Shown here: piece after piece, positions 5,358 to 17,560 of the stretch
Position numbering within the stretch: the first letter of the stretch is position 1
Layout: the number at the start of each line of letters is the position of its first letter
Source of the DNA: Acutalibacteraceae bacterium
GTDB taxonomy: Bacteria > Bacillota > Clostridia > Oscillospirales > Acutalibacteraceae
Length of the DNA stretch: 64,000 nucleotides
Direction of reading: 5' to 3'
NCBI GenBank assembly: GCA_045652065.1
Contig: JAZRTO010000047.1
Coordinates: 2,352-66,351, forward strand
Position numbers and translations under genes: made by a program
Notes under the pieces: generated by a model
Database searches by the model: none
What the model saw: the letters and a program-made list of their open reading frames with translations, nothing else
Told to the model about the DNA's origin: nothing

Positions 5358-5396
5358 GTCCTTTTGTATAAAAATTTATAAAAAGGATTGAAAAAA

Positions 5397-5882
5397 ATGA
5401 AAAATATCAAATCATTTATCGCATTAATTATTGCAATTTTCTGTGTTTTGAGTCTTGCAGCCTGCGGCAACACGGAAGAAACCAACACCGAAGCTCCTGC
5501 AGCTGATATTACCGCAGTAACAGAAAATGACACAACTGAAGAGGCTGGTCTTTGGGCAGAAGCCACCTATACCGAAAATACCGAATTCGGCAAGGGTGCA
5601 AAAACCGTTATTTGCGAAGTAAAGGCGGAAGACAAGACCGTTACTTTTACGGTAAAGACTGATAAGGAAACTGTAGGCGAAGCCCTTCTTGAATACGGAC
5701 TTATTGAGGGCGAAGAGGGTCCTTACGGGCTTTACATAAAGAAGGTAAACGGTATTCTTGCTGATTACGACGTAAATCAGCGTTACTGGGCTTTTTATGT
5801 TGACGGCGAAATGGCAAACACCGGTGTTGACGGCACAGAAATTACGGAAGGTGTAGCATATCAGCTTGTTTACTCAAAGTAA
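5397..5882 (+). CDS. DUF4430 (transcobalamin-like) lipoprotein
   Basis: Lipobox LSLAAC, a T/E-rich linker, and C-terminal YWAFYVDGEMANTGVDGTEITEGVAYQLVY typical of DUF4430. Confidence 0.7.
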   Translation: MKNIKSFIALIIAIFCVLSLAACGNTEETNTEAPAADITAVTENDTTEEAGLWAEATYTENTEFGKGAKTVICEVKAEDKTVTFTVKTDKETVGEALLEYGLIEGEEGPYGLYIKKVNGILADYDVNQRYWAFYVDGEMANTGVDGTEITEGVAYQLVYSK

Positions 5883-6426
5883 AAACAATACGGATAAAAA
5901 GAAAAAATCTCTGAGTGTTCAGGAGATTGTGGTGTTCTCAATGTTGGGAACTCTTATGTTCTGCTCGAAGATTTTAATGGAAGTCTTACCCAACATTCAC
6001 CTGCTCGGAATGCTGACAATGGCATATACCCTTGTGCTTCGGAAAAAGGCGCTGATTCCTGTGTACATTTATGTGTTGCTCAACGGCTTGTTTGGTGGCT
6101 TTTCCATGTGGTGGGTACCGTATCTCTATATATGGACAATTCTTTGGGGAATTACTATGATGCTTCCTGAGAATATGCCGAAAAAGGTTTCTTGTGTGGT
6201 GTATCCCGTTATCTGCGGTTTGCACGGCTTTGCATTCGGAACTCTTTATGCTCCGGCGCAGGCAGTAATGTTCGGTCTGGACTTCGAACAGATGATAGCC
6301 TGGATTGTGGCAGGCTTGCCCTTTGATGTTGTACACGGTGCAGGAAATTTTGTAGCAGGACTTCTCATTGTTCCCATTGCAGAATTTCTAAGAAAACTGT
6401 TTGCTAAAACCCGTATGTATATGTAA
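5866..6426 (+). CDS. ECF-transporter S-component-like membrane protein (cobalamin-family candidate)
   Basis: Small polytopic membrane protein of about six helices that overlaps the end of the lipoprotein gene. The start is uncertain: TTG 5866, GTG 5932 or ATG 5941. Confidence 0.55.
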   Translation: MFTQSKNNTDKKKKSLSVQEIVVFSMLGTLMFCSKILMEVLPNIHLLGMLTMAYTLVLRKKALIPVYIYVLLNGLFGGFSMWWVPYLYIWTILWGITMMLPENMPKKVSCVVYPVICGLHGFAFGTLYAPAQAVMFGLDFEQMIAWIVAGLPFDVVHGAGNFVAGLLIVPIAEFLRKLFAKTRMYM

Positions 6427-6436
6427 AACATTTAAG

Positions 6437-6466
6437 ACTGCTCTTTGATAAGGGCAGTTTTTTTTG
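6437..6466 (+). terminator. Rho-independent terminator
   Basis: Stem ACTGCTC/GGGCAGT with one G-U pair, followed by T8. Confidence 0.6.
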
Positions 6467-6509
6467 TAATTTGTCTTGTTTTTTTGGTAAATTGTGATAT
6501 AATATTTTT

Positions 6510-6646
6510 GTTGTTCAGAAGAGTAACGGCGGGACAGAAGTTCCTTTTTTTGTTTTTTATTACACGTGAAAGATACTACGAAGGTATCATTATCTCAGAA
6601 GGGATAGTGATACCCTTTTTGTGTTTTGAGAAAGGAACTTGAAACA
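6510..6646 (+). promoter_or_regulatory. Structured 5' leader (unclassified riboswitch/attenuator candidate)
   Basis: The promoter is TGaTATAAT at 6495-6503. A small hairpin GGGAC-AGAA-GUUCC with a U7 run lies at 6531-6551. A 12-bp terminator hairpin lies at 6583-6614 with a U-run. A 10-nt anti-SD AAGUUCCUUU (6538-6547) is perfectly complementary to the SD region AAAGGAACUU (6631-6640). Confidence 0.4.
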
Positions 6647-7183
6647 ATGAAAAATAACAGACTTATAAAAACGGTACTTTCGGCATTTTTTCTGGCTCTT
6701 GCATACGTGATGCCTTTTCTGACGGGACAGATTCCGGAAATCGGTTCTATGCTTTGCCCTATGCACATTCCCGTGCTTCTTTGCGGATTTATCTGCGGAT
6801 GGTCCGATGGGCTTGCGGTAGGCTTCATTGCTCCTCTTTTGCGTTCTTTAACCCTTGGTATGCCTCCGCTTTTCCCTGTTGCAGTCTGTATGTCATTCGA
6901 GCTTGCCGCTTACGGTCTTGTTTCGGGACTTATGCACAAATATCTTCCCCGTAAGAAGCCTTTTACTTATGTTTCGCTTCTTTTCGCTATGCTTGCAGGC
7001 AGACTTGTATGGGGAGCTGCTATGTTCGTGAGTCTCAGTATAAGCGGCGGTGCTTTTACCTTTGCGGCATTCCTTGCAGGGGCAGTTACGAATGCCGTAC
7101 CGGGTATACTTGTACAGATTGTAATAATTCCTGTTGTTGTAATGCTTCTTGATAATCCTAAAATATTGAATCTGAGAGATTAA
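6647..7183 (+). CDS. ECF transporter S component (substrate unknown)
   Basis: LTGQIPEIGSMLCPMHIPVLLCGFICG motif typical of ECF S components, in a polytopic protein of about 178 aa. Confidence 0.7.
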   Translation: MKNNRLIKTVLSAFFLALAYVMPFLTGQIPEIGSMLCPMHIPVLLCGFICGWSDGLAVGFIAPLLRSLTLGMPPLFPVAVCMSFELAAYGLVSGLMHKYLPRKKPFTYVSLLFAMLAGRLVWGAAMFVSLSISGGAFTFAAFLAGAVTNAVPGILVQIVIIPVVVMLLDNPKILNLRD

Positions 7184-7184
7184 T

Positions 7185-8273
7185 ATGACTGAAAACATAA
7201 AGTGTTGCGGTGATATCCGCCTGAATCTTATAAATCATTATGATCGTTTCCCCTTGCTGCAGGCAGAGGATATTTTTAAGTACATTTTTCAAAGCTCATT
7301 CGGTTGTGAGCATCTTGTGTCGGATGAAAACAGCGCATTGGAATATATAAAAAGTGAATATTCGAAAATATCAAAGGATGATACACCTTTCAAGGAATCA
7401 CTTGACGGAGAATACAGCCGTGTTTACCTTTCGTGGCTGAATTCGGGACTTTCTCCGGAAACTCTTACAAAATTATTCTGCCTTTCGGCTAAAAATGAAT
7501 CCGACGGAAAAGTCTTGTTGCAAGAAAAAATTCAGGCTGCAAGAAAGCTTATTTCAAGTGGTGAAATACCTATTGACTATGAAGATTTTGAAAGAAAGCT
7601 TAAAGAATGGCAGGGGAGAGGCTGTCCTCCTGTACATCACTCCGATATTTTCAGAAATGCCTATAAGCCTGCATATAGAGTAATTTCCGACAGATATGCA
7701 GACTTTATTCAGGTGTTTTCCGAAATTGACAGATGTATGAAAGAAGGCTCTGTAATCATTGCAATTGAGGGCGGAAGCGCGAGCGGAAAATCTACTCTTT
7801 CGGAAGCCTTGAATGCAGTATATGACTGTAATGTGTTTCATACGGATGATTTCTTTCTCCGTCCCGAGCAGCGCACTCCCGAGCGTTTCAGTGAAATCGG
7901 GGGAAACCTTGACAGAGAACGTTTTGCAGATGAAGTGCTTCGTTCATTAAAGAATAATGAGCCTGTGCAATACCGACCTTTTGATTGTTCAATACAGGCT
8001 TTAGGTAACCCCAGAACTGTTATGCCGAAAAAGCTGACGGTTGTTGAAGGAGTATACTCAATGCACCCTGCATTCGGAAAATATTATAATTTATCCGTAT
8101 TTCTTGATATTGATGCTGTTTATCAGAAGAAAAGAATAACGGTGCGAAATTCTCCCACTCTTGCAAAGCGCTTTTTTGATGAGTGGATACCGCTTGAAAA
8201 TACTTACTTTGCTAAAACTGATATAAAAAAACGAGTAGACCGTATAATCTCAATAAATGACAAAAACCGATGA
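7185..8273 (+). CDS. Two-domain protein: unknown N-terminal domain fused to a uridine kinase/phosphoribulokinase-family P-loop kinase
   Basis: Walker A IAIEGGSASGKST and FHTDDFF in the C-terminal half. The N-terminal 185 aa or so is unrecognised. The gene starts 1 nt after the S-component stop. Confidence 0.6.
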   Translation: MTENIKCCGDIRLNLINHYDRFPLLQAEDIFKYIFQSSFGCEHLVSDENSALEYIKSEYSKISKDDTPFKESLDGEYSRVYLSWLNSGLSPETLTKLFCLSAKNESDGKVLLQEKIQAARKLISSGEIPIDYEDFERKLKEWQGRGCPPVHHSDIFRNAYKPAYRVISDRYADFIQVFSEIDRCMKEGSVIIAIEGGSASGKSTLSEALNAVYDCNVFHTDDFFLRPEQRTPERFSEIGGNLDRERFADEVLRSLKNNEPVQYRPFDCSIQALGNPRTVMPKKLTVVEGVYSMHPAFGKYYNLSVFLDIDAVYQKKRITVRNSPTLAKRFFDEWIPLENTYFAKTDIKKRVDRIISINDKNR

Positions 8274-8468: not shown

Positions 8469-9788
8469 ATGGGTTCTTATCTTCTCGGAATACACACTCC
8501 CCACAGAAAAGGCACAAAAGACAATCCGGTTGTCCGTATTGACAATCCGCAGATTGTCACCATCCCGATGGCAATGCATATCGGAAAACCTGCAATTCCT
8601 GTTGTAAAAGCAGGAGATGTAGTTAAAATCGGTACAAAAATCGGTGAAGCTGACGGTAAGGTTTCATCTGATATCTATTCAAGTATATCCGGTAAGGTGG
8701 TAAAGCTTGTTGAACATCTTCTGTATACAGGTAAAACCACCACAGCGGTTGTTATTGAAGCTGACGGAGAAAATACAGTTGACGAAGCTGTTAAGCCTCC
8801 CGTTATCAATAACCGTGAAGAATTTATTGAAGCTGTGAAGCTGAGCGGTATTGTAGGCCTCGGCGGAGCAGGCTTTCCCACACATGTAAAAATTGATGTT
8901 CCCTCTGAAAAGATTGAATATCTTATTATAAACGGTGCTGAATGTGAGCCTTATGTTACAAGCGATACGGTAAATATGCTTACCCGTGCAGATGATATGG
9001 CTGAAGCGCTTAATGCTCTTAACCGTTATCTCGGTGTAAAGAAGGTTATTATCGGTGTTGAAAGGAACAATAAAAAAGCAGTTACCGCAATGACTGAGCT
9101 GGCATCATCCATTAAAGACTTTGATGTGAAGGTCAATGTTCTTCCCGATAAGTATCCCCAGGGCGGCGAAAAGGTTCTTGTGTACCATACAACAGGACGC
9201 AAAATTTCCGCAAATAAGTTACCCATTGATGTTGGCTGTATAGTTCTTAACAGCACAACAGTTGCAGAAATCGGAGCTTACCTTCGTACCGGTATGCCTC
9301 TGGTGCAGAAGTGTGTAACCGTGGAAGGCGGTGCAGTAGCAAAGCCTCAGAATGTAATTGCTCCTATCGGTACACCTCTTAGTGTTATATTTGATTTCTG
9401 CGGCGGGCTTAAGGAAGATCCTGCAAAAATCATTTACGGCGGTCCTATGATGGGAATTACCGTTCCTAATGCAGATGTCCCCGTTCTTAAGAACACCAAT
9501 GCAGTTCTTGCTCTTACAAAAAAAGAAGCAAAGCTGCCTAAAACAACTGCTTGTATCCGTTGCGGTGCTTGTGTAAACACTTGCCCCTTCAGTCTTTCTC
9601 CCGTAAGTATTGCAGAAGCTTATTCGAAGGAAGATACCGATACATTGAAAGAGCTTTCAGTTCAGTCCTGTATGGAGTGCGGCTGCTGTAGCTTTGTCTG
9701 TCCGGCAAACCGTCCTCTTGTACAGATGAACAAGTTATCAAAAAAATTATTAGCTGAAAAAGCTGAAAAGGAGGGAAGCAAATCATGA
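8469..9788 (+). CDS. rnfC: Rnf complex subunit C
   Basis: GLGGAGFPT motif and two 4Fe-4S motifs (CIRCGACVNTCP and CMECGCCSFVCP). It is the first gene of an rnfCDGEAB array. Confidence 0.9.
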   Translation: MGSYLLGIHTPHRKGTKDNPVVRIDNPQIVTIPMAMHIGKPAIPVVKAGDVVKIGTKIGEADGKVSSDIYSSISGKVVKLVEHLLYTGKTTTAVVIEADGENTVDEAVKPPVINNREEFIEAVKLSGIVGLGGAGFPTHVKIDVPSEKIEYLIINGAECEPYVTSDTVNMLTRADDMAEALNALNRYLGVKKVIIGVERNNKKAVTAMTELASSIKDFDVKVNVLPDKYPQGGEKVLVYHTTGRKISANKLPIDVGCIVLNSTTVAEIGAYLRTGMPLVQKCVTVEGGAVAKPQNVIAPIGTPLSVIFDFCGGLKEDPAKIIYGGPMMGITVPNADVPVLKNTNAVLALTKKEAKLPKTTACIRCGACVNTCPFSLSPVSIAEAYSKEDTDTLKELSVQSCMECGCCSFVCPANRPLVQMNKLSKKLLAEKAEKEGSKS

Positions 9789-10702
9789 ATTCTTTAACAA
9801 AGGTAATGATTTCTCCTCACATACACAGCGGGAAATCCACCTCAGGCATAATGAGAGATGTATTGATTTCTTTGTTGCCCGCAGCTGTTGCAGGAACTGT
9901 TATCTTCGGCTTACGTGCATTGTTGGTAATTGCCGTATGTGTTATCTGTTCTGTAGGCTTTGAAGCAATTTTTAATATTATTGTGAAAAAAGACCAGACT
10001 GTCGGTGATTTATCTGCAGCTGTTACGGGCTTGCTGCTGGCTCTTAATCTCCCTGTTGACATTCCGTTATGGCAGTGCGGTGTCGGCTCATTATTTGCAA
10101 TAATTATAGTTAAGTGTCTCTTCGGCGGTATAGGCTTAAATCTTGTAAACCCCGCAATTACGGCACGTGTGTTTATGATTGTTGCCTTCGGTTCAATGGC
10201 AGTACCTTCGTTCCCCGTTGATTCCGTTTCAAGTGCAACTCCTCTTTCTGCCGAAGCAATGCCCTCTTTACTCGATCTGTTCCTCGGTAACCACGGTGGT
10301 GCTATCGGTGAAACCTGTGTTGCTGCTTTACTTCTCGGCGGTATTTATCTTCTTGTTCGCCGTGTTATTTCCTGGCAGATTCCCGTGGTGTTTATTGCTA
10401 CAGTATTTGTATTCTCTCTCTTTATGGAAGGCTTTGATGCTGTCAGCGCATTGTCTCTTCTTATGTCCGGCGGTGTATTTATCGGTGCGATATTTATGGC
10501 AACCGATTATACCACGTCCCCTTACACACCTTGGGGCAAGGTTATTTTCGGTCTCGGTGCCGGTCTTCTTACCTGCCTTATAAGATATTTCGGAACATAT
10601 CCCGAGGGTGTGTCCTTTGCAATTCTGTTTATGAACATTCTTAATCCTTATATCTGCAAGTGGACAAGACGTAAGGTATTTACGGCAGGAGGAGAGAAAT
10701 AA
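9785..10702 (+). CDS. rnfD: Rnf complex subunit D
   Basis: Polytopic membrane protein with flavinylation-type motif DSVSSATPL. Start ATGA overlaps the rnfC stop. Confidence 0.9.
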   Translation: MNSLTKVMISPHIHSGKSTSGIMRDVLISLLPAAVAGTVIFGLRALLVIAVCVICSVGFEAIFNIIVKKDQTVGDLSAAVTGLLLALNLPVDIPLWQCGVGSLFAIIIVKCLFGGIGLNLVNPAITARVFMIVAFGSMAVPSFPVDSVSSATPLSAEAMPSLLDLFLGNHGGAIGETCVAALLLGGIYLLVRRVISWQIPVVFIATVFVFSLFMEGFDAVSALSLLMSGGVFIGAIFMATDYTTSPYTPWGKVIFGLGAGLLTCLIRYFGTYPEGVSFAILFMNILNPYICKWTRRKVFTAGGEK

Positions 10703-11877
10703 TGAAAAAGAACATAAAAAATCTTGCTGTATTTGTATGTATCTGTACGGTTATAACCTTACTGCTTGCAATTACAAACTCTGTTACTGCTCCCGTTATT
10801 GATAAAAATCAGAATGCTGCTGCTAATGCTGCACTTCTTGAGGTTATGCCCGAGGGTAAAGGCTTTGAGGTTGCAGATATTGCTGAGCTTACTTTACCCG
10901 GTACGGTAACTGAGGTTCACAAGGAAACATCAGGGCTCGGCTATGTTGTAAAGCTTATAACTGCAGGTTACGGCACTGACTTTGTTATTATGTGCGGTGT
11001 AACTTCTGACGGTGTTGTAAGTGGTGCTGTTTGCCTTTCATCAAATGAAACTCTCAGCAAAGAAAAAACTTATGGTGAAAACTTCAAGGATAAGGATGCG
11101 GCAGGTGTTGATGCTGTTGACATTATCGCAGGGGCAACAAAGACTACCGAAGCATATAAAAATGCTGTTAAGGACGCTCTTAATACAGCTGTAATACTCG
11201 GTGGCGGCTCTGTTGATATCCGTACAGAAGAAGAAATTCTCAATGATAATCTTAATGCAGCGTTCCCCGACGGTGAAAATGCTTTCGAAAAGCTGTTTAT
11301 GGTTGAACTGGTTGAAGGTGCCGATGCTGTTTATGAGGCTGTAAATAAGAAGGGCTATGTTTTTGTTTCAGGTGAACAGTTTATCGGTGTCAATGCAGAC
11401 GGAACTGTTGTTACAGAAGGTGTTGAAGACGCTGGACTTTATACCGATGCTGTTGCTGCTATCAAGGCAAGCACAGTTGAGGATATTGATATCAGTGCAT
11501 ACACGGATCTTGAAAAGACAGTTGTTTCCGCAAAGAAGACTGCAAGCGGCAACTTTATTCTTGAAACAAAGGGCGCAGGCTACGGCATCAAGGGCGGAGA
11601 CGAATATCATCCCGCTTCTAATGAATATATCATTGTACGCGTTGCCATTACACCCGATTTCAGAATAATTGACTGTCTTACTGTTTCCGAGGCTGAAACC
11701 GACGGCTTGGGTGATGCATGTGCAGACGAAAGCTTCTACGGACAATTTGTCGGTAAGACAGAAGAAAACTATAAAGAAATTGATGCCATAAGCGGAGCAA
11801 CATTAACCACAAACGGTTATACTCAGGCTATAGAGCGCGCATTCAATGCAGTAAAAACAATGAACGGAGGTGCCTGA
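10702..11877 (+). CDS. rnfG: Rnf complex subunit G, double-length with two FMN_bind domains
   Basis: N-terminal TM anchor and two FMN_bind-like modules ending in VDIIAGATKTT and IDAISGATLTT. The length is 391 aa. Confidence 0.85.
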   Translation: MKKNIKNLAVFVCICTVITLLLAITNSVTAPVIDKNQNAAANAALLEVMPEGKGFEVADIAELTLPGTVTEVHKETSGLGYVVKLITAGYGTDFVIMCGVTSDGVVSGAVCLSSNETLSKEKTYGENFKDKDAAGVDAVDIIAGATKTTEAYKNAVKDALNTAVILGGGSVDIRTEEEILNDNLNAAFPDGENAFEKLFMVELVEGADAVYEAVNKKGYVFVSGEQFIGVNADGTVVTEGVEDAGLYTDAVAAIKASTVEDIDISAYTDLEKTVVSAKKTASGNFILETKGAGYGIKGGDEYHPASNEYIIVRVAITPDFRIIDCLTVSEAETDGLGDACADESFYGQFVGKTEENYKEIDAISGATLTTNGYTQAIERAFNAVKTMNGGA

Positions 11878-11879
11878 TA

Positions 11880-12569
11880 ATGAAAGAAAAATCTTCAGCT
11901 TCAGTTTTGCTTAACGGTATACTGAAGGAAAATCCTGTTCTGGTGCTGATACTGGGCACCTGTCCCACTCTTGCAACCACAACAACAGTCAAGGGTGCAT
12001 TCGGTATGGGTCTTGCTGCAATGGCTGTTCTTATCTGCTCCAATGTGTTTATATCAGTGTTACGCAGGAAAATTCCCGAATCAATGAGAATTCCCTGTTA
12101 TATCGTTATCATTGCTGGCTTTGTTACCATTGTTAAGATGATTGTTCAGGCATATCTTCCGGAATTATATGAAACTCTCGGCGTTTATCTTGACCTTATT
12201 ACGGTTAACTGTATAATTCTCGGCCGTGCTGAAATGTTTGCAAACAAGAATCCCGTTGTAGCTTCTGCTCTTGACGGAATCGGAATGGGTCTCGGATTTA
12301 CACTTGCTCTCACATTGATGTCTGTAATCCGTGAGGTTTTCGGAGCTGCTTCATTTGCAGGAATTGAGATTCCTTTCCTTCAGAATTATAAAATTGAGTT
12401 CTTCACAAAGGCTCCCGGCGGACTTCTTGTTTACGGTCTGCTTATTGCTCTGATTTATTTCGTTACTCACGGAAAAGCACCTCTTAAAAAGTCTTTCTCC
12501 TGTGAGGGCTGTCCCAATGCAGACTCATGCCACAGCGAAAACTGTTCAAAGAAAGGAGATGAGAACTGA
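11880..12569 (+). CDS. rnfE: Rnf complex subunit E
   Basis: NPVLVLILGTCPTLATTT motif in a polytopic membrane protein, in conserved operon position. Confidence 0.9.
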   Translation: MKEKSSASVLLNGILKENPVLVLILGTCPTLATTTTVKGAFGMGLAAMAVLICSNVFISVLRRKIPESMRIPCYIVIIAGFVTIVKMIVQAYLPELYETLGVYLDLITVNCIILGRAEMFANKNPVVASALDGIGMGLGFTLALTLMSVIREVFGAASFAGIEIPFLQNYKIEFFTKAPGGLLVYGLLIALIYFVTHGKAPLKKSFSCEGCPNADSCHSENCSKKGDEN

Positions 12570-13168
12570 TGGAAAGCTTCAAGATTTTAATCGTAATACT
12601 TCTTTCGTCCGTTTTTGTGGATAACTATGTTCTCAGCAGATTCTTAGGTATCTGTCCTTTCCTCGGTGTTTCCAAGAAGATTGATCAGGCAGTAGGAATG
12701 GGTGTTGCCGTAACCGTGGTTATGCTTCTTGCAACAGCTGCAACCTGGCCCATTCAGTATTATGTGCTTAACACGCTGAATCTCGGCTATCTGCAGAATA
12801 TTGCATTTATTCTTATAATTGCAACTCTTGTTCAGATACTTGAACTGCTGCTTAAAAAGTTTTCTCCTTCTCTTTATAAGGGCCTTGGTGTTTACCTGCC
12901 ACTTATAACGACAAACTGTGCTGTTCTTGGAGTTACAATTAACAACATAATTGACGGATACAGCTTTATTGAATCAATGGTAAGCTCCCTCGGCTGCGGT
13001 CTCGGCTTCCTTCTTGCAATGGTTCTCTTCTCGGGACTCCGTTCAAAAATTGACGATACAAAGGTGCCTGCCCCCTTCAGAGGACTTGCTGTAACTCTCA
13101 TTGCCGCTTCGTTTATTTCCCTTGCATTTATGGGCTTCGGCGGCATTGTAGAAAGTATTTTTGCTTGA
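12569..13168 (+). CDS. rnfA: Rnf complex subunit A
   Basis: FLGICPFLGVS motif in a six-helix membrane protein. Start ATG overlaps the rnfE stop codon by one base (TGATG). Confidence 0.9.
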   Translation: MESFKILIVILLSSVFVDNYVLSRFLGICPFLGVSKKIDQAVGMGVAVTVVMLLATAATWPIQYYVLNTLNLGYLQNIAFILIIATLVQILELLLKKFSPSLYKGLGVYLPLITTNCAVLGVTINNIIDGYSFIESMVSSLGCGLGFLLAMVLFSGLRSKIDDTKVPAPFRGLAVTLIAASFISLAFMGFGGIVESIFA

Positions 13169-13184
13169 TGAGAGGTGCCTGACT

Positions 13185-14018
13185 ATGGATATATTAATTG
13201 CGTTTCTTGTTATGACAGGGGTTGCCCTTACGGCAGGTATTCTCATTACTGTTTTTTCTCACTTTTTCTCTGTTCCGGAAAATCCGTTGAAGGCTGAAAT
13301 CCGCGAATGTCTTCCGGGTATTAACTGCGGTGCTTGCGGATATAAGGGCTGTGATGATTATGCTGAGGCTCTTGCAGAGGGTGGAGTTGCTCCTAACCTC
13401 TGTATTCCCGGTGCACAGAGTGTTGCTGATACAATCGGAGGTATTCTCGGTATTGAAGCAGAGCCCTTCAAGGATGTTGTTGCATTTGTTTCATGTAACG
13501 GAAATTGTGATGCAACCTTCAATACTGCTGAATACGACGGTGTAAAGACTTGCTATGCAGCTTCTATGATATACGGAGGTACAAATTCCTGCCGATTCGG
13601 CTGTCTCGGCTTTGGCGACTGCGCGAATGCGTGTCCTGCTGATGCTATCTGTATTGCAGACGGCATTGCACATATTAATACTTCACGTTGCCTCGGTTGC
13701 GGACTTTGTGCAAATACATGTCCCAAGAAGATAATCAATATGATTTCTCAGGAAACTAAAACAGTTGTGATGTGTAGCAATAAGCAGAAGGGTGCCGATG
13801 CTAAAAAGGCTTGCGAAAATGCCTGTATCAGCTGCAAAAAGTGTGAAAAGACCTGTCCTCACGGTGCAATAACCGTAAAGGAAAACCTTGCCGGTATTGA
13901 TTATGACAAATGTACAAACTGTGGTGCCTGTGTGAAGGTATGTCCTACCGGTTGTCTCAAATCGGTATTTTTACCCGATATTCCCGATGATGTAAGTGCA
14001 GAAGATCTGCTTGACTGA
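13185..14018 (+). CDS. rnfB: Rnf complex subunit B (polyferredoxin)
   Basis: N-terminal TM helix, the CGACGYKGC motif, and several CxxCxxCxxxCP clusters. The ATG at 13185 follows GAGAGG. Confidence 0.9.
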   Translation: MDILIAFLVMTGVALTAGILITVFSHFFSVPENPLKAEIRECLPGINCGACGYKGCDDYAEALAEGGVAPNLCIPGAQSVADTIGGILGIEAEPFKDVVAFVSCNGNCDATFNTAEYDGVKTCYAASMIYGGTNSCRFGCLGFGDCANACPADAICIADGIAHINTSRCLGCGLCANTCPKKIINMISQETKTVVMCSNKQKGADAKKACENACISCKKCEKTCPHGAITVKENLAGIDYDKCTNCGACVKVCPTGCLKSVFLPDIPDDVSAEDLLD

Positions 14019-14019
14019 T

Positions 14020-14418
14020 ATGGACAATAATGAAAATACAAAAAAGCACAGTATCAGAAATGATGTGATACTGATAGGTTGTATTCTGCTTGCAGCGGCG
14101 GTGGGAATTATTTATCTGAATTTCTTCCGCAGTCCCGGTGATATGGTGACTGTTACTGTTGACGGAGAGAATTACGGCAGCTTCTCCTTGGCTGAGAATA
14201 TTTGTGAGGATATTTATTCCGTCGAAAACGAAGAGAAGCATAACCGTTTTATAATCAGCGACGGAAAAGCATATATGGAAAAAGCCTCATGTCCGGACGG
14301 AATCTGTGTTGATCACAAGCCTGTTTTCCGTGACGGTGAGAGTATTGTTTGCCTTCCGAACCGTGTAGTCATAACGGTTGTTGACGGTAGCACAGACAGT
14401 CCTGATATCATAATATAG
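14020..14418 (+). CDS. NusG domain II-containing membrane-anchored protein
   Basis: Single TM helix followed by CPDGICVDHKP...IVCLPNRVVI, typical of the NusG_II (formerly DUF1312) family. It starts 1 nt after the rnfB stop. Confidence 0.7.
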   Translation: MDNNENTKKHSIRNDVILIGCILLAAAVGIIYLNFFRSPGDMVTVTVDGENYGSFSLAENICEDIYSVENEEKHNRFIISDGKAYMEKASCPDGICVDHKPVFRDGESIVCLPNRVVITVVDGSTDSPDIII

Positions 14419-14428
14419 GAGGTTTGCC

Positions 14429-14929
14429 TTGAAAACCAAATCTAAAACAGTGGCTTTTGCAGGTATATGTGTTGCTCTGGCTCTCATATTTGCCTATATA
14501 GAGGTATTGATCCCTCCCTTGTTTACGGCGCTTCCCGGAATAAAAATGGGCCTTCCGAATATTATCATAGTTTTTCTTCTTTACAGAAAGGGTCCCGTGT
14601 TTGCAGGAATTGTTTCTCTTGTGAGAATACTTCTTGTAAGTATGCTGTTCGGAAATATGATGGCACTTATGTACAGTCTTGCAGGCGGTGTGCTCAGCCT
14701 TCTTGTTATGATAATTCTTCGCAAGCTGAATATTTTATCTCCCGTGGGAGTCAGTGTTGCAGGCGGTGTTACCCATAATGTGGGACAAATTGTTATGGCG
14801 GCGCTTCTTCTTGATACAGCAGAGCTCGGGTACTATCTTGTAGTTCTGGCTGTTACGGGAACAATTGCCGGTGTATTCATCGGTCTTTGCGGATCGTTCC
14901 TTATAAAACGAATTCCGAATAAAATATGA
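14429..14929 (+). CDS. Gx transporter family protein (Hpre_diP_synt_I family)
   Basis: Small five- or six-helix membrane protein. The TTG start lies 6 nt after GGAGG. It commonly pairs with NusG_II proteins. Confidence 0.7.
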   Translation: MKTKSKTVAFAGICVALALIFAYIEVLIPPLFTALPGIKMGLPNIIIVFLLYRKGPVFAGIVSLVRILLVSMLFGNMMALMYSLAGGVLSLLVMIILRKLNILSPVGVSVAGGVTHNVGQIVMAALLLDTAELGYYLVVLAVTGTIAGVFIGLCGSFLIKRIPNKI

Positions 14930-14945
14930 ATTTTTTTAATATGTG

Positions 14946-14974
14946 TTGACAAAAATATTAATATATTGTAATAT
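14946..14974 (+). promoter_or_regulatory. Sigma-A type promoter for the lipoprotein gene
   Basis: TTGACA at 14946-14951, a 17-nt spacer ending in TG, and TAATAT at 14969-14974. Confidence 0.5.
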
Positions 14975-15011: not shown

Positions 15012-16064
15012 ATGAAAAAGGCTTTAGTAATTGCGTTATGTCTCATTATGGCTGTTTCCGTAATTTTTGTTGGTTGCGGTAACACAACAGGTACAGAAAC
15101 AACAACTCCCGATGCAACAGCTGAAACAACAGCTGAAGCAACAAGCGAAAAGACAGAAGCTGGTGCAGCACTTAAGTTCGGCTCAGGTGTATATGTTACA
15201 GCTCCCGCTACAACAGATGCTACTGAAGACAAGGACGGCACAGGTAAGGTTGACATTACTTTTGCAGCTGTTACAGTTGATGCAGACGGCAAAATAGTTG
15301 CATGTGCTCTTGACACAGCAAGCAACACTGTTAATTTCACTGCTGACGGTAAGGCAGTTGCAGTTGAAGAGTTCAAGACAAAGTACGAATTAGGTAATGA
15401 CTACAATATGGTAGCTTACGGCGGTGCAGTAAAGGAATGGTTTGAGCAGGCTGATGCTTTCGAAGCACTCGTTGCCGGCAAGACTCTTGACGAAGTTAAG
15501 GCTTTAGTTGCTGAAGGCGACAAGGGTACTGACGAAGTTATCGAGGCAGGCTGCACAATTATGATTGCTGAATTTGTAGGCGCTATTGAAAAGGCTTACA
15601 ATGCTGCTGCAGAATCCGACGTTACAGCTGCTGATACATTAAAGGTAACAGCTGCTACTGAACAGACATGTACAGATGCAACTGAAGACAAGGATGGCTC
15701 AAACAAGGTTTCAACTACTGTTTTCGCTGCTGCTGTTAATGCAGAAGGCAAGGTAGTAGCATGTGCAAGTGATTGTGTAGAAGTTACCTTCACATTCACA
15801 ACTGCAGGTGCATCCACTCTTGATACAACAAAGGAAGTTATTTCAAAGAAGGAACAGGGCAGTGACTACGGCATGGTAGCTTACGGCGGCGCTGAAAAGG
15901 AATGGTTCGAGCAGGCTGCTGCATTTGATGCTGCTTGTATCGGCAAGACTGCAAAGGAAATTGCAGGCTTCGTTGCTGAAGACGGTAAGGCTGTTGCTGA
16001 TATCCAGGCTGCAGGCTGCACAATCTTTGTAACAGGCTTTGTTAAGGCTGCTTCCAAAATCTGA
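15012..16064 (+). CDS. Lipoprotein with two tandem divergent FMN_bind-like repeats
   Basis: Lipobox VIFVGC. There are two repeats of about 150 aa that share DATEDKDG..K..., MVAYGGAxKEWFEQAxAF and AGCTI motifs. The pattern parallels FMN_bind (G-Y...vtv.dGKI...vD.vSGATxT...A..kA). Cellular function not established. Confidence 0.6.
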   Translation: MKKALVIALCLIMAVSVIFVGCGNTTGTETTTPDATAETTAEATSEKTEAGAALKFGSGVYVTAPATTDATEDKDGTGKVDITFAAVTVDADGKIVACALDTASNTVNFTADGKAVAVEEFKTKYELGNDYNMVAYGGAVKEWFEQADAFEALVAGKTLDEVKALVAEGDKGTDEVIEAGCTIMIAEFVGAIEKAYNAAAESDVTAADTLKVTAATEQTCTDATEDKDGSNKVSTTVFAAAVNAEGKVVACASDCVEVTFTFTTAGASTLDTTKEVISKKEQGSDYGMVAYGGAEKEWFEQAAAFDAACIGKTAKEIAGFVAEDGKAVADIQAAGCTIFVTGFVKAASKI

Positions 16065-16084
16065 GTAAAATCAACAAATTAAAA

Positions 16085-16116
16085 AAGAGAGAGAGTGTTC
16101 TCTCTCTTTTTGTTTT
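16085..16116 (+). terminator. Rho-independent terminator
   Basis: 9-bp stem AGAGAGAGA/TCTCTCTCT with loop GTGT, followed by TTTTTGTTTT. Confidence 0.6.
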
Positions 16117-16126
16117 ATGGAATATT

Positions 16127-17167
16127 ATGAAAAAAAGAATTCTTAGTATTGCACTTATTTTACTTATTCTTATAAGTGCGGCTTCCTGCTCCCGTACTCC
16201 CGAAAAAAGTAAATATTCAACCTATTCTATGGAGTATTTTGATACCGTTACTACGATAACGGGCTATGAATATACTCAGGAAGAATTCGATGATGTAGCG
16301 GAAGAAATACTGACTATGCTTGGTGAGTATCATCGACTGTATTCAATCTATCACCGTTTCGACGGACTGGAAAATCTCTGCACAATCAATGAGCTTGTTG
16401 GCGGAGAGCACCGTACGGTAACAGTTGACCGCCGTATTATTGATATGCTTCTTTATGCGAAGGAAATGTATTACAAAACTGACGGTATTATGAATATTGC
16501 AATGGGAAGTGTTTTGTCTTTATGGCATGATTACCGTAATGTAGGTAAAGATAATCCCGCGGAGGCTTCTTTACCGCCAATGGAAAAGCTCAGGGAAGCA
16601 GCAAGCCATTGCGATATTGAAAAAGTGGTTATAGATGAAATCAATAACACTGTTACATTGACAGATCCCCTAATGAAGCTTGATGTTGGTGCTATTGCTA
16701 AAGGATATGCTGTTGAATGTGCAGCACGTGTCCTTCAGGAAAAGGGAGTTACCGGATATGTGCTGAACGTAGGCGGAAATGTCCGTACTGTAGGCTCCAG
16801 AGGTGATGGTACCCCGTGGTCGGTTGGTATTGAAAATCCCGAGAGCAATGATTATTTTGCTTATCTTGACCTTAACGGACAGTCGGTTGTTACAAGCGGC
16901 TCATATCAGCGGTATTATTATGTTGACGGAAAACCCTATCATCATATAATTCATCCTGATACACTTATGCCTGCAGAGGGATTTTTATCTGTTTCTGTAG
17001 TGTGTAATGATTCAGGCCTTGCCGATGCGCTTTCTACCGCTCTTTTCTGTTTGTCTCAGGAGGAAGGCTCTGTGCTTATTGAATCCTTTGACGATGCCGA
17101 GGCGATGTGGGTTACCCAAGACGGAAATAAAACATTTTCATCGGGCTGGAATAAATATGCAAAGTAA
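16127..17167 (+). CDS. apbE: FAD:protein FMN transferase (ApbE family) lipoprotein
   Basis: Lipobox ISAASC and ApbE-type motifs (DVGAIAKGYA, NVGGNV, VVTSGSYQRY, HHIIHP). Confidence 0.85.
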   Translation: MKKRILSIALILLILISAASCSRTPEKSKYSTYSMEYFDTVTTITGYEYTQEEFDDVAEEILTMLGEYHRLYSIYHRFDGLENLCTINELVGGEHRTVTVDRRIIDMLLYAKEMYYKTDGIMNIAMGSVLSLWHDYRNVGKDNPAEASLPPMEKLREAASHCDIEKVVIDEINNTVTLTDPLMKLDVGAIAKGYAVECAARVLQEKGVTGYVLNVGGNVRTVGSRGDGTPWSVGIENPESNDYFAYLDLNGQSVVTSGSYQRYYYVDGKPYHHIIHPDTLMPAEGFLSVSVVCNDSGLADALSTALFCLSQEEGSVLIESFDDAEAMWVTQDGNKTFSSGWNKYAK

Positions 17168-17182
17168 GGACGGTGCAGAAGT

Positions 17183-17560
17183 ATGTTGGAAAATTTTGTA
17201 ACACAATATAAAGAGTTTTTGTTTCCCTTTGCGGAAATTACTGCAAGTACTCTGGAGCTTATCGGAATTGTCATTATTTTCATAGGTTCTTGCCGTGCTC
17301 TTGTCCGGCTGGTGCAGTGTTTTGCGAAAAAACAGCCTTTTCATGTTGTGGTGGATCTGGGAAAAGCATTGTCCCTTGCCCTGGAATTCAAAATGGGTGC
17401 CGAGATAATCAAAACCGTTGTCATTCATAACCTTGAAGAGCTTGCAATATTAGGTGTTGTAATTATAATCCGTGCATTGCTTGCAGTTATTATTCATTGG
17501 GAAATCCGTGTTGAGGAAAAAAGCAGCTCCTTGAAAAAAGATGCAGATGAGAATAAATAA
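17183..17560 (+). CDS. DUF1622 membrane protein
   Basis: LSLALEFKMGAEIIKT motif and three hydrophobic helices. Confidence 0.6.
   Translation: MLENFVTQYKEFLFPFAEITASTLELIGIVIIFIGSCRALVRLVQCFAKKQPFHVVVDLGKALSLALEFKMGAEIIKTVVIHNLEELAILGVVIIIRALLAVIIHWEIRVEEKSSSLKKDADENK

Follow-up and report, generated by a model that had tools for sequence, protein, structure and literature searches.

A stretch of 64,000 nucleotides (nt) from an Acutalibacteraceae bacterium (contig JAZRTO010000047.1; "the window" here means the whole of this stretch) carries an rnfCDGEAB operon that is followed, on the same strand, by genes for a NusG_II-domain membrane protein, a PF07456 membrane protein, a lipoprotein of 350 amino acids (aa), the transferase ApbE, which moves flavin mononucleotide (FMN) from flavin adenine dinucleotide (FAD) to protein, and a DUF1622 membrane protein. 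The lipoprotein contains two similar repeats, each with the sequence A-G-C-T close to its C-terminal end, and it is this protein and its family that we describe in this report. Our data suggest that the repeats are remote relatives of the FMN_bind domain and that the lipoprotein is probably flavinylated by ApbE, forming a two-FMN electron carrier at the cell surface, an analogue of PplA that is linked to Rnf.

The lipoprotein gene and its product

The features of the locus are collected in Table 1. The neighbours that an earlier first-pass annotation of the window had given to the lipoprotein gene (rnf, a Gx protein and a lipoprotein ApbE) are as it described them, and the 64,000 nt contain neither a second apbE gene nor a second copy of the lipoprotein gene.

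Table 1. Features of the lipoprotein locus, with their positions in the window
Feature	Position	Strand	Basis and remarks
rnfCDGEAB operon	8469..14018	+	
NusG_II-domain membrane protein	13996..14418	+	PF07009, 7.6e-27; usual partner of the EetB-family gene
PF07456 'Gx'/EetB-family membrane protein	14429..14929	+	9.8e-36; probably substrate-binding subunit of an FAD exporter
Sigma-70-like promoter match	14946..14974	+	TTGACA, 17 nt, TAATAT; 10/12 consensus, 38 nt 5' of the lipoprotein start; pattern match only
Lipoprotein gene, 350 aa, two FMN_bind-related repeats	15012..16064	+	open reading frame, translation, homologues
Lipoprotein signal peptide, lipobox VFVGC	15012..15077	+	lipidated Cys22 = nt 15075-15077; read from sequence
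Thr/Glu/Ala-rich flexible tether, aa 23-52	15078..15167	+	low complexity; predicted local distance difference test score (pLDDT) 52-63, here only
Repeat 1, aa 53-198	15168..15605	+	internal repeat; AlphaFold2 secondary structure, three long beta strands and helices, pLDDT >95
Conserved Y-x-M ... E-W-x-x-Q segment, repeat 1	15402..15461	+	Y131, M133, E142, W143, Q146; at least 90% conserved, 114 homologues
A-G-C-T site 1, aa 179-182	15546..15557	+	predicted FMN acceptor Thr182 at nt 15555-15557; aligned on 2KZX S-G-A-T
Repeat 2, aa 199-350	15606..16061	+	internal repeat; single-repeat model pLDDT 96.2, predicted template modelling score (pTM) 0.88
Conserved Y-x-M ... E-W-x-x-Q segment, repeat 2	15867..15926	+	Y286, M288, E297, W298, Q301; 114-homologue alignment
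A-G-C-T site 2, aa 334-337	16011..16022	+	predicted FMN acceptor Thr337 at nt 16020-16022
13-bp hairpin followed by a T-run	16082..16111	+	terminator- or attenuator-like; between lipoprotein gene and apbE
ApbE FAD:protein FMN transferase	16127..17167	+	PF02424 at 1.7e-70; lipoprotein signal ...ISAASC
DUF1622 membrane protein	17183..17560	+	PF07784 at 3.1e-16; after apbE in 58/80 loci

The longest open reading frame (ORF) that includes the lipoprotein gene would begin at GTG 14943, yet the homologues begin with MKK, and ATG 15012 is therefore the likely start; a ribosome-binding site (GGAGG) lies 8 nt upstream of it, and the stop codon ends at 16064. M1, K2 and C22 hardly vary in the homologue alignment, the lipoprotein signal being conserved among homologues. 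Aligned with each other, repeats 1 and 2 are 50% identical over 134 residues (E=1e-37), far above chance, and with the translation this self-alignment bears out the lipobox and the two repeats of about 150 aa of the first-pass annotation; repeat length in the query family is about 146-152 aa. The insert MVAYGGAxKEWFEQAxAF that was reported for both repeats is present at aa 133-150 and again at aa 288-305, and the G-Y element said to open each repeat fared less well, being not evident in repeat 2. Among 114 homologues, the nearly invariant positions of a repeat are D101, K124, Y131, M133, E142, W143, Q146, G156 and K157.

The AlphaFold2 model of the whole protein is confident (pLDDT 93.2, pTM 0.84), with both repeats above a pLDDT of 95 throughout, and it suggests that the two repeats may be held in a fixed mutual arrangement. 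A modelled repeat comprises three strands of 13-15 residues, one short strand and five helices, and A-G-C-T stands directly before the last helix.

Conservation of the A-G-C-T sites

A-G-C-T occurs once per repeat, as had been claimed, and the two 8-residue windows first given for it (15537-15560 and 16002-16025) are correct. The spelling DIQAGCTI of the second site is not: it reads D-I-Q-A-A-G-C-T-I, and its Asp, which was thought to be kept at position -6 relative to the Thr (position 0), sits at -7. The first site has the context T-D-E-V-I-E-A-G-C-T, with an Asp at -8, so that neither repeat has the Asp at its canonical position.

The site was then compared across 322 repeat copies, drawn from the 150 best cluster representatives and the query. 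Position 0 is Thr in 93% and Ser in 6%, and the expectation that homologues retain the acceptor thus holds for 99% of the copies. The preceding positions are more variable: position -1 is Cys in 79%, Val in 15% and Ala in 4%, position -2 is Gly in 67%, Ser in 21% and Thr in 6%, position -3 is Ala in 80%, Ser in 13% and Thr in 4%, and Asp occupies position -6 in 39%. Across the family the site can be written as (D)-x-x-[A/S/T]-[G/S]-[C/V/A]-[T/S], and copies with canonical or near-canonical SGAT, SSAT, AGAT and TTAT are present inside the lipoprotein family itself. In the alignment of 114 proteins, conservation of both T182 and T337 is 90% or higher. The constrained feature is the acceptor hydroxyl; the Cys is preferred yet replaceable. 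Copies that lack Asp at -6, the query included, almost always read A-G-C-T (190/196), and copies that have it are mixed at -1, with Cys (64), Val (45) or Ala (13). This association between loss of the Asp and presence of the Cys could represent co-variation or simply phylogeny.

Relationship of the repeats to the FMN_bind domain

The lipoprotein matches 2KZX, a listed member of the FMN_bind family PF04205 (PMC4348036), with E=3e-5 when the single protein is used, 1.2e-8 with a two-repeat profile and 1.6e-9 with a single-repeat profile. The alignment is confined to the last ~70 residues at the C-terminal end of a repeat and brings A-G-C-T in register onto the S-G-A-T of 2KZX, Thr on Thr. It also includes the Y-x-M-x-x-Y-G-G…E-W-x-E-Q segment, which is common to the lipoprotein repeats and 2KZX and reads YKMVEYGGAQAEWHEQ in the latter, and the several nearly invariant residues that the two have in common suggest a shared ligand pocket. 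The matched fragment of 2KZX scores 25.8 bits on the Pfam FMN_bind model, over the cut-off of 22. This match to a PF04205 member is significant and in register, and it links the repeats, at the level of sequence homology, to the PF04205 domain as remote relatives. With the single-repeat profile, 8P2B, the FMN domain of a multi-flavinylated protein, gave a weak match (E=0.59) in the same register, and a homologue search with the 2KZX fragment returned one 48-aa protein only, too little for a profile that would bridge the two families.

A hidden Markov model (HMM) of the repeat was also run over all ORFs in the six frames of the fetched loci, 4340 in number, of which RnfG makes up 1.6%. In the ranking of non-self hits, RnfG took the first 20 of 20 and 36 of the first 40 places, aligned in all cases at the two RnfG flavinylation sites; as RnfG orthologues are mutually non-independent, this ranking is supportive and not a statistic. 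The first-pass description of the repeats as FMN_bind-like is thus sustained by the sequence match to 2KZX, with AGCT on SGAT, and is not sustained by the Pfam and Foldseek comparisons that are considered in the Discussion.

Gene neighbourhood

One genome per species was scanned with a profile built from 30 closer homologues, and 586 places were found to encode a relative; counts for close loci refer to the best 80 of these 586 places. All 80 belong to Acutalibacteraceae, Oscillospiraceae or 'Eubacteriales' metagenome-assembled genomes (MAGs), many of them bearing the names of ruminant-gut samples (goat, cattle, sheep and yak). apbE lies directly 3' of the lipoprotein gene in 79, and the contig of the 80th ends before it. 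The usual order at these loci is rnfCDGEAB, NusG_II, PF07456, lipoprotein, apbE and DUF1622, and the NusG_II gene is found upstream in 67 of the 80 as well as in several distant loci. In five close loci the lipoprotein-apbE-DUF1622 block is located upstream of rnf; because the block switches sides in this way, the lipoprotein-apbE pair moves as a unit.

Eight distant loci had enough flanking DNA, and apbE adjoins the lipoprotein gene in each. They encode a four-repeat protein, two six-repeat proteins (one in a Sphaerochaetaceae MAG), a fusion to FMN_bind in Feifania hominis, a stand-alone cassette of NusG_II, PF07456, lipoprotein and apbE, a human-gut two-repeat protein and two single-repeat proteins, and rnf genes lie within the fetched flanks of six. 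The adjacency to apbE that the first-pass annotation had noted in the window therefore holds at every locus that extends far enough (79/79 close and 8/8 distant), and it spans 30-90% identity, various repeat numbers, Firmicutes and a Sphaerochaetaceae MAG. Substrates of ApbE are expected to share its compartment, to be encoded close to it and to have a Ser or Thr at the end of the motif; here, the lipoprotein and ApbE are placed in the same compartment because both carry lipoprotein signals, their genes are adjacent, and both sites end in Thr. In addition, PF07456 is the EetB family; in Listeria, the FAD exporter that supplies the ApbE-type enzyme FmnB has EetB as its substrate-binding subunit, and in 572 genomes of Clostridia EetB is co-localised with Rnf genes (PMC9973259).

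All 79 related loci have a stable hairpin and a T-run in the lipoprotein-apbE spacer, which has a median length of 68 nt; the median energy of the hairpin is -18.9 kcal/mol. As patterns in the DNA, the promoter-like site and the hairpin suggest that the lipoprotein transcript may be abundant, with limited read-through into apbE.

Several further observations were made around these loci. In Feifania hominis (L084), too, a DUF1622 gene is a neighbour of the rnf operon. Two loci have rnfC, rnfD and a short rnfG after apbE: in L082 (10032-12824) no rnfE, rnfA or rnfB comes directly after, and in L092 (2388-5202) the contig ends soon after rnfG; judging from their gene content, both may encode reduced Rnf-like complexes. 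Just 5' of rnf in the window, positions 5388-8273 hold four genes, which encode a DUF4430 lipoprotein, a membrane protein without a family match, an energy-coupling factor (ECF)-transporter S-component, whose matches include a riboflavin-type one, and a 362-aa protein in which the C-terminal part is a uridine-kinase-like P-loop domain; from these matches, the four may form a vitamin-uptake cluster.

Family size and repeat architectures

A word-indexed search returned 2858 homologues at E<=1e-3, and an exhaustive search returned 1320 clusters at 50% identity, which is a lower bound on the size of the family; none of the homologues found in these searches has a Pfam domain or an informative name. 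Two repeats per protein is the common architecture (249 proteins), and four (11), six (2), one (7), three (1) and five (1) also occur. A homologue search with a single-repeat profile yielded chiefly gene fragments, together with complete single-repeat lipoproteins. Two such lipoproteins that adjoin apbE are those at L091 2176-2706 (176 aa) and L092 690-1304 (204 aa), with the sites S-S-C-T and A-S-V-T; because complete single-repeat lipoproteins adjoin apbE, pairing of the repeats is not obligatory.

In Feifania hominis (WP_249298697.1; L084 7001-8392), a canonical FMN_bind domain with D-G-V-S-G-A-T is fused ahead of two repeats with S-S-V-T, and similar FMN_bind fusions occur in P0226 and P0259. 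By their motifs, these fusion lipoproteins would have three putative flavin sites per protein. Feifania hominis is a cultured, named species with a RefSeq protein record and hence a candidate organism for experimental work.

Discussion

The proposal that the lipoprotein is flavinylated depends on whether A-G-C-T is a plausible site for ApbE. The ApbE motif is D-x-x-[S/T]-G-A-[S/T], and mutagenesis of this motif has indicated that flavinylation is lost with Thr-to-Ala, is little affected by Asp-to-Ala and is kept at about 50% with Ala-to-Val at -1 or Gly-to-Ala at -2 (motif and mutagenesis as given in the review PMC12052999). In the window, RnfD reads D-S-V-S-S-A-T (nt 10220-10240, +), and RnfG (10702-11877, 391 aa) reads D-I-I-A-G-A-T (nt 11119-11139, +) and D-A-I-S-G-A-T (nt 11782-11802, +); because RnfG and RnfD of this genome carry A-G-A-T and S-S-A-T, the local ApbE must tolerate an Ala at -3 and a Ser at -2. 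This RnfG is twice the usual length, with two FMN_bind stretches, and would carry two flavins if both sites were used. A-G-V-T is found at the position of the flavinylation motif in expanded RnfG proteins at L088 12419-14368 (649 aa, Sphaerochaetaceae MAG) and L089 10609-11865 (418 aa, human-gut contig), so that, to judge from the residues at this position, non-canonical sites occur in RnfG itself. Each departure from the motif in the lipoprotein thus has a precedent or a tolerated mutation, except Cys at -1, and Cys is between Ala and Val in size. We read A-G-C-T as a natural variation on the [S/T]-G-A-[S/T] motif that ApbE would tolerate, in which Cys would stand where a small residue is required.

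Our data suggest a model whereby the lipid anchor would hold the protein at the cytoplasmic membrane, on its outer side, with the flexible tether carrying two domains of ~150 aa. FAD would be exported by the EetB-family protein encoded upstream, and the ApbE lipoprotein encoded downstream would move the FMN part of FAD onto the hydroxyls of Thr182 and Thr337. The result would be a two-flavin extracytoplasmic electron-carrying unit, analogous to PplA of Listeria, which would exchange electrons most likely with the outward-facing RnfG/RnfD flavins of the co-encoded Rnf complex. We regard flavinylation of the lipoprotein as rather likely; a role in electron transfer is proposed by analogy with the covalent FMN domains of Rnf, Nqr and PplA, and gene linkage alone points to Rnf as the putative partner. 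Taken as a whole, an ApbE-flavinylated, two-FMN surface electron carrier tied to Rnf is the reading that we consider probable.

A number of results weigh against this reading. Neither repeat conforms to D-x-x-[S/T]-G-A-[S/T], the canonical Asp at -6 being absent from both. The search with the Pfam FMN_bind model, which the first-pass annotation had proposed as a check, was negative (no match to the lipoprotein at E<=1), and NCBIfam gave no informative match either; the SPRY, SPASM and lipoprotein signal models that appeared in these scans are at chance level and were set aside. When 114 diverse homologues were scanned singly, FMN_bind was touched in four, all below threshold (best E=0.0021); the homologue P0249 scores 15.5 bits on PF04205, for which the gathering cut-off is 22 bits. 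The Foldseek comparison, likewise a check proposed there, was also negative: made against the PDB with two confident models (whole protein and single repeat, pLDDT 93 and 96), it returned nothing at E<=0.001, and FMN_bind structures were absent from the 50 best entries. The best entries for the single-repeat model were NTF2/SnoaL-like proteins and LptE, none of them significant, and MHC-like structures were among the top ranks of the whole model, with poor template modelling (TM) scores and no significance. Alignment by hhalign to a small set of RnfG-type FMN_bind domains gave a local match of 28 columns that is in register and weak, with a probability of 7%, and rnf was not seen within the fetched flanks of two of the eight distant loci.

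That rnf is not always close by is relevant to a different role, in which the lipoprotein would be a flavin-handling accessory, binding FAD or FMN non-covalently outside the cell and handing it over to ApbE after its export by the EetB-type system, or storing it for the maturation of RnfG/RnfD, and would belong to a maturation cassette and not to the electron path. The NusG_II, EetB-like, lipoprotein and ApbE genes stay together even where no rnf is nearby (L085-L087), the conserved Tyr, Trp, Glu, Gln and Lys suggest a ligand pocket, and the domain has relatives with a flavin-binding fold. However, a carrier needs no hydroxyl at the ApbE acceptor position, which is kept in 99% of copies, and the motif drifts only among variants that ApbE tolerates. 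Many rnf or extracellular electron transfer systems with ApbE and EetB function without such a protein (PMC9973259), and the forms with four to six repeats and the fusions to canonical FMN_bind domains resemble electron relays, so that an accessory role appears rather improbable. The Cys itself could also be the working residue of a non-flavinylated derivative built on an FMN-binding ancestral fold, acting as a carrier in thiol redox or persulfide chemistry, or binding a metal or an Fe-S cluster. We consider this quite improbable: although Cys occupies -1 in 79% of copies, and in 190/196 of those without Asp at -6, the query among them, about 21% of copies have Val, Ala, Ile or Thr in its place, the Thr or Ser at position 0 is kept in 99%, and the strict adjacency of apbE would be left unexplained. 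The best Foldseek matches of the whole model are IscU Fe-S scaffolds, which are not significant (E=0.018), and this lead was rejected, with poor TM-scores of 0.16 and 0.37 and a root-mean-square deviation of 8.8 A, and its disappearance when the single-repeat model was used. An IscU-like set of three Cys ligands was likewise rejected, as each repeat has one semi-conserved Cys and thus no ligand set.

The first-pass suggestion that the Cys has a role of its own is weakened by these findings, since Cys alternates with Val and Ala and copies with SGAT, SSAT and AGAT exist within the family; a special role is unlikely family-wide and would be possible in the A-G-C-T subfamily. Finally, the protein might be an unrelated surface lipoprotein, solute-binding or wall-associated, whose motif likeness and position beside apbE are meaningless. 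It has no curated family match and no structural neighbour by Foldseek, as such a protein might, yet apbE stays adjacent at 30-90% identity, across phyla and repeat architectures, and the match to 2KZX is significant and in register; we regard a chance resemblance of this kind as very improbable.

An ApbE-flavinylated surface electron carrier is therefore the reading that we retain. An extended form of it, in which the A-G-C-T lipoproteins are a distinct class of covalent flavoproteins dedicated to Rnf, combining Cys thiol chemistry with an extracellular electron route, seems unlikely to us. Under this form, the thiol beside the FMN-bearing Thr may act as a flavin-thiol redox pair or as a second covalent contact to the cofactor, and the cell-surface electron acceptors of such a pair could be, for example, disulfides, thiol shuttles or oxygen; Rnf may thereby feed extracellular electron transfer in gut Clostridia that are free of quinones and cytochromes. 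The near-fixed Cys (190/196) of the subfamily without Asp at -6 would be compatible with such a gained function and could equally be phylogenetic inertia.

If A-G-C-T and A-S-V-T are flavinylated, the accepted ApbE motif is relaxed at three positions, some 'orphan' apbE genes acquire a substrate, and many Rnf operons hold an extra surface flavoprotein, hinting at an outward branch of Rnf electron flow in organisms without quinones or cytochromes. The family, whose members come mostly from gut and rumen Clostridia and also from a Sphaerochaetaceae MAG, would also offer new natural sequences for ApbE-based flavin tagging.

Comparison with known systems

The domains of PF04205 (RnfG, NqrC and PplA; 2KZX, 3O6U, 3DCZ and 3LWX) resemble the lipoprotein repeats in having a beta-sheet followed by helices, with a Thr-ending motif just before the last helix, and in being extracytoplasmic and encoded together with apbE. 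In contrast, the lipoprotein repeats are longer (about 150 aa, with strands of 13-15 residues), their motif is [A/S]-[G/S]-[C/V]-T, and they lack the E-T-x-G-x-G element of RnfG-type domains. A parallel in organization is PplA of Listeria monocytogenes (with FmnB, EetA/EetB and FmnA), which is likewise a lipoprotein at the cell surface; it has two flavin domains, and its gene lies beside that of an ApbE-type transferase and near an EetB-family gene for FAD export. However, PplA has canonical PF04205 domains with S-G-A-T-type sites and serves an electron route based on quinone and Ndh2, whereas the lipoprotein described here has rnf as its neighbour and no adjacent ndh2 or dmk; it is thus an analogue and not an orthologue.

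Substrates of ApbE outside PF04205, namely DUF2271, DUF3570, Flavodoxin_4 and FMN_red, were recognised, similarly, by adjacency to apbE and a motif that ends in Ser or Thr (PMC8238504, PMC11334425). They differ from the lipoprotein family in their unrelated folds, in their [S/T]-G-A-[S/T]-like motifs and in having been confirmed by co-expression. Surveys of ApbE substrates rely on the Pfam FMN_bind model and the [S/T]-G-A-[S/T] pattern (PMC8238504, 2021; PMC11334425), and the lipoprotein family, with its 1320 or more clusters at 50% identity, escapes them. We found no description in the literature of this family, of an A-G-C-T site or of an Rnf-linked flavinylated lipoprotein. The family forms a large branch within the FMN-binding superfamily, not covered by Pfam and marked by a non-canonical motif, and its members are probably a new set of ApbE substrates.

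To call it an undescribed class, as the first-pass annotation did, is probably too strong, because a domain named FMN-bind2 was sketched in 2024 (Huang, Meheust, Barquera and Light, mSystems; PMC11334425). FMN-bind2 was found by BLAST, is present in Firmicutes and relatives, measures ~160 aa and occurs in twos, fours or sixes, with a predicted pairing of beta-sheets into a pseudo-symmetric two-site unit; its reference proteins are NTW96865.1 and WP_312031774.1, a reference protein lacks an InterPro entry, and neither a motif nor an experiment is given for the domain in that report (PMC11334425). The two reference proteins did not turn up in cluster look-ups of the lipoprotein family. Compared by description only, the lipoprotein repeats agree with FMN-bind2 in size, in their mostly even copy number, in their presence in Firmicutes and relatives and in being invisible to Pfam, and on this comparison the lipoprotein domain is probably the same as FMN-bind2 or a sister of it. 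If the two are the same, what is new here is the non-canonical motif, the size of the family and its tie to rnf.

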